Shown one piece after another: positions 5,804 to 8,651 of a stretch of DNA of 64,000 bases. A program made the translations under genes and the position numbers. The notes beneath the pieces were generated by a model. That model worked only from the letters and a program-made list of their open reading frames with translations. It was not told the DNA's origin and did not search any database. The stretch's first letter is position 1; the number at the start of each line of letters is the position of its first letter. The DNA is from Gammaproteobacteria bacterium (GTDB lineage: Bacteria > Pseudomonadota > Gammaproteobacteria > Burkholderiales > SG8-39): assembly GCA_041496745.1 (NCBI GenBank), contig JBGQFF010000001.1, positions 16,675 through 80,674 of the forward strand, in the 5' to 3' direction.

Positions 5804-6280
5804 GTGACTCCCTTGGGCGCCATCGAGATGAGCGCCCTCGGCGTGGCGATGCGCCAGTCGCTGTGGCTGTACCCGATCGTAGAGATCGTGCACCTCACGG
5901 GCATCGCGCTGCTGGTCGGCTCGATCGCCATGCTCGATCTGCGCCTGCTGGGACTGTCGCGCTCGGTGCCGGTGCGGCGCCTCGCGTCCCACATCCTGCC
6001 GTGGACCGCGGCCAGCTTCCTGCTGATCGTGCCGAGCGGCCTCGCCATGTTCGTGGCGCACGCCGGGGACTTCATCGCCAGCCCGGTGTTCGTGCTGAAG
6101 ATCTGCCTGATCCTCGCCGCCGGGACGAACGCGGCGGTGTTCCACGCCGGCGTGTTCCGTGGGGCGGCGGACTGGGATGTGAACCGCCCGCCGCCCGCCG
6201 CGGCGCGCGTGTCGGCGGCGCTGTCGCTGCTGCTGTGGGTCTCGGTGATCGCCTGCGGGCGGCTGCTGGCCTATACCTAG
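5804..6280 (+). CDS. Integral membrane protein, function unknown
   Basis: The 158-aa ORF has 4-5 hydrophobic spans (LWLYPIVEIVHLTGIALLVGSIAML, ASFLLIVPSGLAMFV, FVLKICLILAAG, ALSLLLWVSVIACG). It starts 4 nt after the preceding stop. Confidence 0.6.
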   Translation: MTPLGAIEMSALGVAMRQSLWLYPIVEIVHLTGIALLVGSIAMLDLRLLGLSRSVPVRRLASHILPWTAASFLLIVPSGLAMFVAHAGDFIASPVFVLKICLILAAGTNAAVFHAGVFRGAADWDVNRPPPAAARVSAALSLLLWVSVIACGRLLAYT

Positions 6281-7332
6281 AAGCCGATGCGCGCCTTCCG
6301 GGCGCGCCCGTCCCGCACGTCTTCGGGCCGCAGCTCCCCGCGCCCGGCGAGCTTGGCGTTGCCGAACGCGGCCAGCGTTGCGCGCCGCATCTCCCGGGGC
6401 GAGAGTTCGGCGAGTTTCTCCACCACCGCCGTGCGCGGCGCCTCGGGAAAGCCCTTGCCCCAGTCGTGCGCGCCGCGGATCTCGCGGTAGATGGACAGCG
6501 CGATGCGCGCCGCGCCCTCGGCGTCCGGCGCTTCGATCTCGTAGACGTGCATGCGGTTGAGGATCGGTTCGGGGATGCGCGCGGCGTCGTTGGCGGTGGC
6601 GAACCACACCGCGCCGGAGGCGTCGATCGGGATCTCGGCGAACTCGTCGACGAAGCGCGTCGCGGTGTCCACCTCGAGCAGGCTGTACAGGGCACCGAGC
6701 GGGTCGTACTGGCCCTCCGCGCTCGCCTTGTCGATCTCGTCCACCACCATCACCGGGTTGGCGTAGTCGCCGTTGAGGAAGGTGTCGAACACCTTGCCCG
6801 GCTTGGCGTTCTTCCATTGCGAGGAGGCGCCGCTCAGGATCCAGCCGGCGGTGAGCGAGCTCATCGGCACGAAGCCGTAGCCGGTGCCGAGCAACTGCGC
6901 GATGCGCCGCGCGAAGTGCGTCTTGCCGATGCCCGGTTCACCCAGCAGCAGTATCGGCGGCAGCTCGACGGCGTCCTCGGAATCGATGCACAGCGCCAAC
7001 TGCTTGCGCATGTCCTCGAGCACAGCGCCGAAATTGGGCAGCTCGTCGAACAACTGGTCCATCGCCGGCATGGCGGAGGGCTTGACGGTGAAGCGCTGGC
7101 CGCCGACGCGCAGCATCTTGTCGTAGAGCGCACGCAGCGCCTCGTTCGCGCCGGGAGGGAGTTCCTGCAGCGCCTTTTCCACGGCCGGAACGTCGTAGAC
7201 GTCCTTGAAACCCGCAATCGGAATAGTCACGAGTGAAAACGCTAACAGACGCAGCAAGGCGAAGCAAATCCGGGAGGCCGCATTCTGGCAGTCCGCGGCG
7301 CCGAGTGCCAGATGCGCGCCGTGTAGGCGCAT
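6277..7332 (-). CDS. AAA+ ATPase (Lon-like ATPase module with no protease domain)
   Basis: It has Walker A LLLGEPGIGKTHFA, Walker B VMVVDEIDKAS, and sensor region PEPILNRMHVYEIEAP. The start is uncertain: ATG 7332 or GTG 7230 (VTIPIAGFKD). Confidence 0.8.
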   Translation of the reverse strand: MRLHGAHLALGAADCQNAASRICFALLRLLAFSLVTIPIAGFKDVYDVPAVEKALQELPPGANEALRALYDKMLRVGGQRFTVKPSAMPAMDQLFDELPNFGAVLEDMRKQLALCIDSEDAVELPPILLLGEPGIGKTHFARRIAQLLGTGYGFVPMSSLTAGWILSGASSQWKNAKPGKVFDTFLNGDYANPVMVVDEIDKASAEGQYDPLGALYSLLEVDTATRFVDEFAEIPIDASGAVWFATANDAARIPEPILNRMHVYEIEAPDAEGAARIALSIYREIRGAHDWGKGFPEAPRTAVVEKLAELSPREMRRATLAAFGNAKLAGRGELRPEDVRDGRARKARIGF

Positions 7333-7368
7333 TTGCCTTGCCCCGGGAGTTCATGCTTGAATGCCGGC

Positions 7369-7434
7369 ATGACCCGCTGGTACTTCGGCTATTTTTTCCA
7401 CTTCCCGCGCCCTCTGGCGGAGGGGAACGGCTAG
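7369..7434 (+). CDS. Putative aromatic-amino-acid leader peptide MTRWYFGYFFHFPRPLAEGNG
   Basis: This 21-codon ORF has 7 of 9 consecutive codons encoding W/Y/F (TGG TAC TTC GGC TAT TTT TTC CAC TTC). It lies 77 nt upstream of the DAHP synthase start and just 5' of a terminator hairpin. Confidence 0.6.
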   Translation: MTRWYFGYFFHFPRPLAEGNG

Positions 7435-7459
7435 CCGCACTTCCAGCGAAACCGAGAAA

Positions 7460-7493
7460 CCGCCAGAGCAGAGATGCCTGGCGGTTTTTTTTT
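7460..7493 (+). terminator. Rho-independent terminator/attenuator in the aroG leader
   Basis: The stem CCGCCAG(A)GCA / TGCCTGGCGG has a GAGA loop (7460-7484) and is followed by nine T (7485-7493). The left arm CCGCCAGAG (7460-7468) is also perfectly complementary to CTCTGGCGG (7412-7420) inside the leader ORF. Confidence 0.65.
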
Positions 7494-7510
7494 GACCTGA
7501 GGCCCACACC

Positions 7511-8629
7511 ATGACCGCGCCCACCGACTCCTTTCTCGGCCCCGTGCCCGCCGACAAGACTTCGCTCACCGACGACGAGCGCATCGAGAACATCGTCCCG
7601 CTGCCGCCGCCGGAGCACCTGATCCGCTTCTTCCCGATCCAGGGCACGCCGGTGGAAACGCTGATCGCCGAGACGCGGCGCCGCATCCGCGCCATCCTGC
7701 ACGGCAAGTCCGACCGCCTGCTGGTGGTGATGGGCCCGTGCTCGATCCACGACCCGGCCGCGGCGGTGGAGTACGCCGGGCGCCTCGCCGCCGAGCGCCG
7801 CCTGCACGAGGGCGAGCTGGAAATCCTGATGCGCGTGTATTTCGAGAAGCCGCGCACCACGGTGGGCTGGAAGGGGCTGATCAACGATCCCTACCTCAAC
7901 GGCAGTTACCGCATCAACGAGGGGCTGCGCATCGCGCGCGACCTGCTGGTGCGCATCAACCAGGCCGGCGTGCCCGCGGGCTGCGAGTTCCTCGACGTGA
8001 TCTCGCCACAATACATGGGCGACCTGGTGTCCTGGGGCGCGATCGGGGCGCGCACCACCGAGTCGCAGGTGCACCGCGAGCTGGCCTCCGGCCTGTCGGC
8101 GCCGGTCGGCTTCAAGAACGGCACCGACGGCAACGTGAGGATCGCCGTGGACGCGATCCTCGCCGCCAGCCAGAAGCACCATTTCCTTTCGGTGCACAAG
8201 ACCGGGCAGGTGGCGATCGTGCAGACGCGCGGCAACGACGACTGCCACATCATCCTGCGCGGCGGCAAATCGCCGAACTACGACGCGGCGAGCGTCGCCG
8301 CCGCCTGCGCCGAGCTCGTCAAGGCCAAGCTGCCCGAGCGCCTGATGATCGACTGCTCGCACGCCAACGCCGCCAAGCAGTTCAAGCGCCAGCTGGACGT
8401 GGCGCGCGACGTCGCGGCGCAGATCACGGGCGGCGAGCGGCGCATCGTCGGCACGATGGTCGAATCGCACCTGGTGGAGGGGCGCCAGGAGCTGACCCCG
8501 GGCAAGCCGCTGCAGTACGGCCAGAGCGTCACCGATGCCTGCCTCGGATGGAAGGACTCGCTGGAGGTGCTGGAGACGCTGGCCGGTGCGGTGAAGGAGC
8601 GGCGCAGCGCCGGCAAGAGCAGACGCTGA
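7511..8629 (+). CDS. aroG: 3-deoxy-7-phosphoheptulonate (DAHP) synthase, class I
   Basis: Conserved blocks include LLVVMGPCSIHDP, MRVYFEKPRTTVGWKGLINDP, WGAIGARTTESQVHRELASGLS and PVGFKNGTDG. The isoenzyme type is not assignable from sequence alone. Confidence 0.95.
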   Translation: MTAPTDSFLGPVPADKTSLTDDERIENIVPLPPPEHLIRFFPIQGTPVETLIAETRRRIRAILHGKSDRLLVVMGPCSIHDPAAAVEYAGRLAAERRLHEGELEILMRVYFEKPRTTVGWKGLINDPYLNGSYRINEGLRIARDLLVRINQAGVPAGCEFLDVISPQYMGDLVSWGAIGARTTESQVHRELASGLSAPVGFKNGTDGNVRIAVDAILAASQKHHFLSVHKTGQVAIVQTRGNDDCHIILRGGKSPNYDAASVAAACAELVKAKLPERLMIDCSHANAAKQFKRQLDVARDVAAQITGGERRIVGTMVESHLVEGRQELTPGKPLQYGQSVTDACLGWKDSLEVLETLAGAVKERRSAGKSRR

Positions 8630-8651
8630 GGCAGTCGTTAGAATCGCTGCC

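Follow-up and report, generated by a model that had tools for sequence, protein, structure and literature searches.

A probable leader-peptide attenuator with a mixed aromatic codon run upstream of the DAHP synthase gene aroG in Burkholderiales

A 64,000-nucleotide (nt) stretch of contig JBGQFF010000001.1 (assembly GCA_041496745.1, Burkholderiales lineage SG8-39), analysed here as a whole and referred to as the window, carries a compact element directly upstream of aroG, the gene for an AroG-type 3-deoxy-D-arabino-heptulosonate 7-phosphate (DAHP) synthase. The comparative and modelling evidence makes it very probable that this element is a ribosome-mediated leader-peptide transcription attenuator controlling aroG, and on the best reading of the same evidence it would sense the charging of the tRNAs for phenylalanine, tyrosine and tryptophan. 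The initial annotation of this DNA had labelled the element a candidate translational attenuator; we replace this label, the element being described more aptly as a putative transcriptional attenuator that is coupled to translation. Here we describe its anatomy, its conservation among relatives, the covariation of its strands and their predicted folds.

Direct reading of the window confirmed all positions given in the initial annotation for the leader open reading frame (ORF), the complementary strands, the terminator and the spacing to aroG (Table 1). The packing of aromatic codons was likewise as claimed, with seven aromatic residues in the nine codons 4-12 (7378-7404), and in the 3' part of the ORF CTCTGGCGG (7412-7420) is the exact reverse complement of CCGCCAGAG (7460-7468), which belongs to the 5' arm of the terminator. 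The segment 7410-7472 is predicted to close by a 9-bp stem between these two strands (7412-7420:7460-7468; -21.6 kcal/mol), which forms the antiterminator. In the alternative terminator, C7460-A7470 pairs with T7475-G7484 over 10 bp with A7467 bulged and nine T residues next to the stem, and the whole of 7460-7493 folds at -22.7 kcal/mol (z = -6.2 relative to dinucleotide shuffles). A further leader hairpin (7375-7448) was obtained as the minimum free energy (MFE) fold of 7369-7450 (-35.5 kcal/mol, z = -3.5 against dinucleotide shuffles) and recurs in the fold of the full leader (7340-7500; -71.7 kcal/mol, z = -4.6). The run of T residues ends 17 nt before the aroG ATG at 7511. No other locus on either strand of the 64 kb combines a short ORF having at least five aromatic residues in ten with a following T-run. 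A generic promoter and terminator scan of the window did not call the 7460-7493 hairpin, probably because bulged stems are not handled; its terminator calls at 7316-7330 and 7376-7389 were weak 5-bp stems that we do not regard as functional.

In the proposed mechanism, transcription would start at or just before the leader ATG, and a ribosome would translate the 21-codon leader while RNA polymerase advances. When charged tRNA-Phe, tRNA-Tyr or tRNA-Trp is scarce, the ribosome would be expected to stall within codons 4-12 (7378-7404), hiding the 5' strand of the leader hairpin (region 1) and freeing CTCTGGCGG at 7412-7420 (region 2) to pair with CCGCCAGAG at 7460-7468 (region 3) once the latter has been made; this antiterminator pairing would prevent the terminator hairpin from forming, and polymerase would enter aroG. 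When aromatic amino acids are plentiful, the ribosome would pass region 2 and reach the TAG at 7432, region 3 would be left with only the terminator 3' arm (region 4) as a partner, and the region 3:4 hairpin followed by T9 would end transcription about 17 nt before aroG. If no translation takes place, region 1 would pair with region 2, likewise favouring termination.

To place the element among its relatives, the AroG protein was used to scan one genome per species, which yielded 80 loci, nearly all of them labelled Burkholderiales or other Betaproteobacteria, the best encoding proteins 84% and 79% identical to that of the window. In 57 of the 80 loci, as in the window, aroG is directly preceded by a short ORF rich in aromatic codons and then by a hairpin with a T-run. 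A covariance model of 135 positions (R1), built from 54 homologous leaders with the window excluded, matched the plus strand of the window once, over its full length (model positions 1-135), at 7369-7492 with a score of 64 bits (E about 1e-14); on the minus strand it matched the palindromic terminator weakly (E = 0.022), and there was no other match. The model added four loci (L012, L079, L057 and L028), bringing the element to about 60 of the 80 aroG loci. Carriers belong to the Comamonadaceae, Sphaerotilaceae-type genera, Burkholderiaceae, Oxalobacteraceae and Alcaligenaceae; among the 80 loci, it was absent from the more distant Rhodocyclales, Methylophilales, Polynucleobacter and Cupriavidus. 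Across the 57 leaders the ORF is 18-30 codons long and encodes peptides such as MSAKFYFYFFWHLRPLADREG (Paraburkholderia, Caballeronia), MSSRFAFYFFYFWFSVPGGREANA (Limnohabitans) and MFARHFFTAYFYFSNSNPKAVE (Janthinobacterium), and T-runs of 5-9 follow the hairpin in every aligned leader. The element always lies immediately 5' of aroG, whatever the gene further upstream, which is tldD on the same strand in many relatives and a divergent AAA ATPase gene in the window. In about 60 of 80 loci, aroG is thus accompanied by the complete set of aromatic run, antiterminator strand and terminator, with pairings that exclude each other, and the alignment of orthologous upstream regions bears out the pheL/trpL-like architecture that the initial annotation had proposed.

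The aromatic run is conserved as a series of codons. Across the family, aromatic codons make up 84% of the run in frame, compared with 26% and 16% in the other two frames, and an ATG, an in-frame stop and a frame-specific aromatic run are kept in all 57 leaders. Conservation within the run is highest at codon position 1; position 2 varies by interchange of Phe, Tyr and Trp, and position 3 varies synonymously. Judged from these alignments, the run is constrained in what it encodes, which speaks for translation of the leader. The initial annotation had also remarked on AT-rich aromatic codons in the leader. In the window this does not hold, as the run contains one TAT and one TTT, the rest being TAC, TTC and TGG, with no difference from the window's own aroG; it does hold for the family, in which Phe is encoded by TTT 158 times (61% of 260) and by TTC 102 times in the leaders, compared with 69 TTT (15% of 447) and 378 TTC in the adjacent aroG genes (Fisher p = 2.7e-35 for excess TTT and p = 1e-5 for excess TAT, both uncorrected for relatedness). 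The average leader has 4.6 Phe, 1.75 Tyr and 0.86 Trp codons, Tyr being present in 56 and Trp in 46 of the 57. Phe is probably the main signal to which the element responds, with Tyr and Trp sensed as well, and such Phe-led mixed sensing would suit a Phe-type AroG that feeds all three branches of the pathway.

The 3' part of the leader ORF follows a different rule. All 57 leaders have the pentamer GGCGG. Counted from the first base of the final aromatic codon, it starts 11-21 nt downstream, which places it at or just beyond the margin of a stalled ribosome, and 6-37 nt separate it from the stop. It falls in reading frame 0 in 26 leaders, in frame 2 in 29 and in frame 1 in two; because the pentamer stays invariant whichever frame it falls in (giving GG, xAx and so on), the constraint on the ORF 3' of the run is, as far as the alignments can tell, on the RNA. 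Peptide tails that look conserved (PGGRE, LAEG, LADREG, KAVE) are accordingly by-products of this constraint. Its partner is kept just as strictly: the terminator core AACCGCC...GGCGGTTTT is invariant, with CCGCC in 57 of 57 leaders.

Applied to the full alignment of the 57 leaders, RNAalifold returned the terminator helix only. Because this program cannot represent an alternative fold, the antiterminator was assessed with an anchored, gap-free mini-alignment of 53 distinct rows that combined the leader strand with both arms of the terminator. At the position flanking the core, 23 rows have a C:G pair in the antiterminator, 16 have U:A and three have U:G; in the terminator, 32 rows have G:C and 19 have A:U. 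Taken jointly, the three bases are C/G/C in 23 rows and T/A/T in 14. None of 500 shuffles reached the observed covariation score for either helix, and the score collapsed in slid controls. By this three-way covariation, the region 3 base is tracked by both of its mutually exclusive partners.

Furthermore, the switch was simulated on the RNA as it would be present before the terminator 3' arm is made, with the ribosome footprint masked; the initial annotation had suggested folding with and without the leader region masked. A ribosome placed mid-run leaves CCGCC paired to GGCGG of the leader in 52 of 57 cases; when the mask is extended up to the stop codon plus 13 nt, this pairing occurs in none of the 57. 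Folded without constraint, the region 2-3 segment adopts the antiterminator as its MFE structure in 54 of 57 leaders; the median energy is -24.3 kcal/mol, compared with -17.1 kcal/mol for the terminator. Mutually exclusive pairings, which had been proposed from the window alone, are therefore supported both by covariation with a shared base and by a predicted switch in the expected direction.

Table 1. Features of the aroG leader region and neighbouring genes, in window coordinates
Feature	Position	Strand	Details
Divergent AAA ATPase gene	6277-7233	transcribed away from aroG	5' neighbour of the leader in the window
Possible -35 hexamer TTGCCT	7333-7338	+	18 nt 5' of the -10-like box; suggested weakly by position only
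Extended -10-like box TGcTTGAAT	7354-7362	+	aligns with TGnTAcAtT of relatives; ends 6 nt before the leader ATG
Leader ORF	7369-7434	+	ATG 7369, TAG 7432-7434; 21 codons encoding MTRWYFGYFFHFPRPLAEGNG; no Shine-Dalgarno sequence
Region 1, 5' strand of leader hairpin	7375-7408	+	predicted partner 7417-7448 when ribosome-free (fold)
Regulatory codon run	7378-7404	+	codons 4-12, TGG TAC TTC GGC TAT TTT TTC CAC TTC = W Y F G Y F F H F
Region 2 core, antiterminator strand CTCTGGCGG	7412-7420	+	family-invariant GGCGG = 7416-7420
Region 3, terminator 5' arm CCGCCAG(A)GCA	7460-7470	+	common to antiterminator and terminator
Terminator loop GAGA	7471-7474	+	direct reading
Region 4, terminator 3' arm TGCCTGGCGG	7475-7484	+	same helix as RNAalifold consensus of 57 leaders
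T9 tract, intrinsic terminator	7485-7493	+	direct reading
GAGG, Shine-Dalgarno-like for aroG	7499-7502	+	8 nt 5' of the aroG ATG
aroG, class I-alpha DAHP synthase, AroG type	7511-8629	+	372 amino acids; Pfam DAHP_synth_1, E = 4.6e-93

We also considered how translation of the leader might begin. A Shine-Dalgarno-like 4-mer was found at -20 to -5 in none of 52 leader ORFs, compared with 44 of 53 aroG genes. Counting the window, 40 of 58 loci have their best -10-like hexamer placed so that it ends 6-9 nt ahead of the leader ATG, nearly always with TG upstream. From this spacing, transcription is predicted to begin at the A of the ATG (A7369 in the window) or no more than 2 nt away, and the ORF would hence be leaderless. 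Leaderless initiation in window-type loci is accordingly put forward as a tentative proposal that follows from promoter spacing. The Burkholderiaceae and Oxalobacteraceae have TTGNCA-17-TATAAA or TATAGT boxes 25-38 nt upstream of the leader ATG and a predicted 5' untranslated region (UTR) of about 20-30 nt, again with no Shine-Dalgarno sequence. A literature search for published leaderless transcription-start data in Comamonadaceae returned nothing relevant. Both the missing Shine-Dalgarno sequence and the extended -10-like box 6 nt before the leader ATG had been passed over in the initial annotation.

Several observations weigh against the attenuator reading. Owing to the GC-rich context, CCGCC finds some pairing partner in 45% of trials even in shuffled controls, so that pairing per se is unremarkable; what is remarkable is the fixed partner, its fixed position and the covariation. 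The core helices are invariant and hence contribute no covariation signal, and the covarying states largely split two big clades, representing perhaps one to three independent events. In ribosome-free simulations the antiterminator was already the MFE structure of 19 of the 57 pre-terminator RNAs, and in these models the untranslated state is less clear than in trpL. In individual folds the region 1:2 (anti-antiterminator) pairing seems to vary by lineage, which is the least secure part of the classic model: TTCTC/GAGAG holds in Comamonadaceae, the window seemingly compensates with TTCCC/GGGAA, and Burkholderiaceae and Variovorax apparently set codons 2-3 (TCCGCC) against GGCGGA. A single conserved region 1:2 helix was rejected, the partners apparently differing by lineage when these folds were inspected one by one. 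With no Shine-Dalgarno sequence before it, the leader ORF would need leaderless or other non-canonical initiation; moreover, TTGAAT in the window departs from the -10 consensus in having no A at position 2, and no promoter was called at the window leader by the generic sigma-70 scan.

The lack of a Shine-Dalgarno sequence in every lineage, including the Burkholderiaceae and Oxalobacteraceae with their predicted 5' UTR, is also what would be expected if the switch were real but set by a protein, a tRNA or a small molecule (in the manner of TRAP, a T-box or a riboswitch), the ORF being untranslated. Against such a ligand stand the ATG, the in-frame stop and the frame-specific run of all 57 leaders, with their third-position and F/Y/W variation; besides the switch helices, only codon class is conserved. 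No Rfam family, the T-box included, matches convincingly at E up to 10, and a -10 box 6-9 nt before the ATG fits leaderless translation, so that we consider a ligand-set switch very unlikely. It is similarly hard to credit that the unit of about 125 nt from promoter to terminator acts mainly in trans, as a small RNA or a micropeptide, its adjacency to aroG being secondary. Its compactness, with a promoter-like box of its own and a strong terminator, would suit such a role, and trans functions are on record for attenuator-derived RNAs and for leader peptides, as with rnTrpL and peTrpL of Sinorhizobium. The unit nevertheless lies immediately 5' of aroG in every locus where it is present, the N- and C-terminal parts of the peptide are poorly conserved with GGCGG read in different frames, and conservation follows the alternative pairing with the terminator; a trans role could add to the cis role but would not replace it.

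A more prosaic explanation would make the hairpin an ordinary terminator or insulator for the neighbouring genes, with the aromatic ORF arising as a by-product of a T-rich tract. The A-tract at 7456-7459 together with the T-tract does give the hairpin a two-directional look, in line with the weak minus-strand model match (E = 0.022), and tldD ends just upstream on the same strand in many Comamonadaceae. According to the ORF listing, however, no gene converges on the hairpin in the window, and because the 5' gene is divergent the hairpin cannot be the terminator of a neighbouring gene, which leaves only the leader transcript to be terminated. The frame-specific codon pattern and the conserved antiterminator strand would also be left unexplained, and we regard this origin as scarcely conceivable. 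Leader-peptide attenuation of aroG thus remains the preferred interpretation.

Next, the element was compared with catalogued and described systems. A search of 7200-7560 against all 4227 families of Rfam 15 at E up to 10 found no leader family (Phe_leader, Trp_leader, His_leader, Leu_leader, Thr_leader and others). The two hits that it did return, ylbH at 17.4 bits (gathering score 50) and RcsR1 at 13.9 bits (gathering score 60), were rejected as chance-level, and the whole window gave no match to Rfam 15 at gathering thresholds. Five representative leader peptides matched no NCBIfam leader-peptide model at E up to 10, and none of ten leader peptides was present by exact look-up in a collection of 15 billion proteins. 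We found no description in the literature of an aroG leader in Betaproteobacteria; an earlier in silico prediction, in a 2004 comparative study, may exist.

In Escherichia coli, the three DAHP synthase genes are repressed by TyrR or TrpR, and attenuation acts on trp, pheA and pheST (PMC11802643); the contrast that the initial annotation had drawn with repression of aroF, aroG and aroH by TyrR and TrpR is therefore correct. The window element resembles pheL-pheA and pheM-pheST (Rfam Phe_leader) in its Phe-run ORF, its mutually exclusive hairpins, its T-tract before the gene and the presumed sensing of charged tRNA by stalling (PMC3082878, PMC11802643). It differs from pheL in preceding the entry enzyme of the common pathway and not the Phe branch, and in a run made up of codons for all three aromatic amino acids. 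The catalogued pheL genes are from the gamma subdivision (PMC3082878), whereas the present element is found in Burkholderiales, lacks a Shine-Dalgarno sequence and, in the Rfam search at E up to 10, has no sequence or covariance-model similarity to pheL. With trpL-trpEDCBA it would share the four-region logic (1:2, 2:3, 3:4) and the dependence on ribosome position (PMC11802643), but here region 2 lies wholly inside the leader ORF, before the stop, the 1:2 pairing depends on lineage, and codons of several kinds are involved.

The closest precedent is the Corynebacterium glutamicum aroR leader upstream of aroF, which carries Phe-Tyr-Phe codons, is induced by Phe limitation (PMC11802643, PMC4046766, PMC3890552) and is likewise a leader-peptide attenuator on a DAHP synthase gene with Phe and Tyr codons. 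It has three regulatory codons and no Trp, compared with seven in nine in the window, and an actinobacterial host. For the Vibrio DAHP synthase-tyrA operon, attenuators predicted in the Merino attenuator database are cited in PMC1173090, and these would also be premature terminators before a proteobacterial DAHP synthase gene; unlike the Burkholderiales element, they are database predictions, concern another isoenzyme and operon (Tyr-type aroF-tyrA) and come from another bacterial class, and the relevant excerpt of PMC1173090 describes no leader peptide. Homology between the window leader and aroR is very unlikely. An attenuator of a DAHP synthase gene is thus not without precedent, aroR-aroF having been described, and the mechanism proposed here is the textbook one and not a new kind of system; what sets the element apart is the gene, the mixed run for three amino acids, the breadth across Burkholderiales, the absence from catalogues and the possible leaderless start. 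Leaderless regulatory short ORFs that begin with a 5'-terminal AUG and sense amino-acid supply are found in Actinobacteria, as in the mycobacterial polycysteine short ORFs. These belong to another phylum and sense another amino acid, and the leaderless start of the present element is deduced from promoter spacing.

Taken together, the data may mean that the aroG entry step across much of the Burkholderiales is mainly under one multivalent Phe/Tyr/Trp attenuator, with a leaderless leader (a 5'-terminal AUG coinciding with the transcription start) in the window and in Comamonadaceae and Sphaerotilaceae-type loci, a wide claim that we view as possible but doubtful. If the attenuator reading is true, an order that includes Variovorax, Acidovorax, Paraburkholderia and Massilia, and that is large and of environmental and clinical importance, would control the committed aromatic step outside the TyrR/TrpR scheme, and one cis element would integrate three end products for which enterobacteria use three isoenzymes and two repressors. 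The R1 covariance model can be used at once to annotate an element that Rfam and the NCBI leader-peptide models lack, and the element could serve as a compact aromatic-responsive part for engineering shikimate-pathway flux in Burkholderiales hosts. The absence of a Shine-Dalgarno sequence combined with a fixed 6-9 nt spacing from -10 box to ATG makes it a clean test case for leaderless translation in Betaproteobacteria; were the leaderless reading true, ribosome loading would be tied directly to promoter escape, and the element would be a proteobacterial case of a design so far associated with Actinobacteria.

Turning to the regulated gene, comparison with solved structures placed the window DAHP synthase closest to the Phe-sensitive AroG of E. 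coli (472 bits), with the Tyr-sensitive AroF scoring 370 bits. Residues F225-L-S227 align with AroG F209-L-S211, which puts Ser at the AroG Ser211 position, and Ser or Gly at this position is what we take, from the yeast Aro3/Aro4 literature, to be a determinant of Phe versus Tyr specificity. By these comparisons the product is an AroG-type, putatively Phe-sensitive DAHP synthase.

Some relatives showed variations on the common arrangement. In locus L010 (3-1244) and in many Comamonadaceae-type loci, a conserved tail of 37 amino acids upstream of the leader is the C-terminus of a TldD-like protease gene, which we take it to be from the HEAVGHGLEGD motif recognised by eye. The stop codon of this gene lies about 10-20 nt 5' of the leader -10 box in many Comamonadaceae-type loci, so close that the leader promoter overlaps the gene end and tldD read-through would enter the attenuator. 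The distance from leader to aroG is usually 30-150 nt; in Undibacterium sp. TS12 (L079, 894-1500) the leader MKQVVFFFFFYFSYSRPKAVGRR (77.5 bits) lies about 460 nt 5' of the aroG ATG (1492), with no convincing ORF in the gap and a second, weaker model match on the minus strand (998-1120; 30.8 bits), an arrangement that may be an insertion or a rearranged duplicate. Aromatic-rich leaders 5' of aroG also occur on two contigs binned outside the Betaproteobacteria, one in a metagenome-assembled genome (MAG) labelled Devosia (L066, 1376-1508; 43.5 bits against the model) and one in a Chloroflexota MAG (L072, 1353-1519), where MANPVRCFSYFWFSYFACEGRG... is followed by a different, longer terminator and does not match the model; mis-binning, horizontal transfer of a leader-aroG unit or independent origin may account for them. 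The leader of L012 (1299-1423), MRTTVRYHFWHFHIQHLTGAGVANA, is partly degenerate, with four aromatic and four His residues, and still scores 77.6 bits; the run is likewise broken by a His residue in the window (FFHF) and in the Burkholderia group (FFWHL).

Two features of the leader sequence itself were also recorded. The terminator is nearly symmetrical, with the A-tract (GAAA, 7456-7459) on its 5' side and T9 on its 3' side, and AA before CCGCC is kept in 51 of the 53 mini-alignment rows; in the window, where no gene is convergent, the A-tract may simply lengthen the stem by pairing with the first U residues. Within the codon run, T TTT TTC at 7392-7398 forms a slippery heptamer of the type X XXY YYZ, and similar T-runs are present in most relatives. 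Frameshifting in E. coli pheL has been judged incidental (PMC3082878), and by analogy the heptamer is probably a side effect of Phe-codon stacking.

Downstream of aroG, 22 nt separate the stop codon (TGA, 8627-8629) from the GTG start (8652) of a PMT_2-family glycosyltransferase gene, with neither a terminator nor a Shine-Dalgarno sequence in the gap. The hexamer TAGAAT (8639-8644) ends 7 nt before this GTG, a spacing from -10 box to start like that at the leader ORF. The GTG may thus be a second leaderless start; alternatively, transcription of aroG may continue into the glycosyltransferase and UbiA genes, which would then come under the attenuator.

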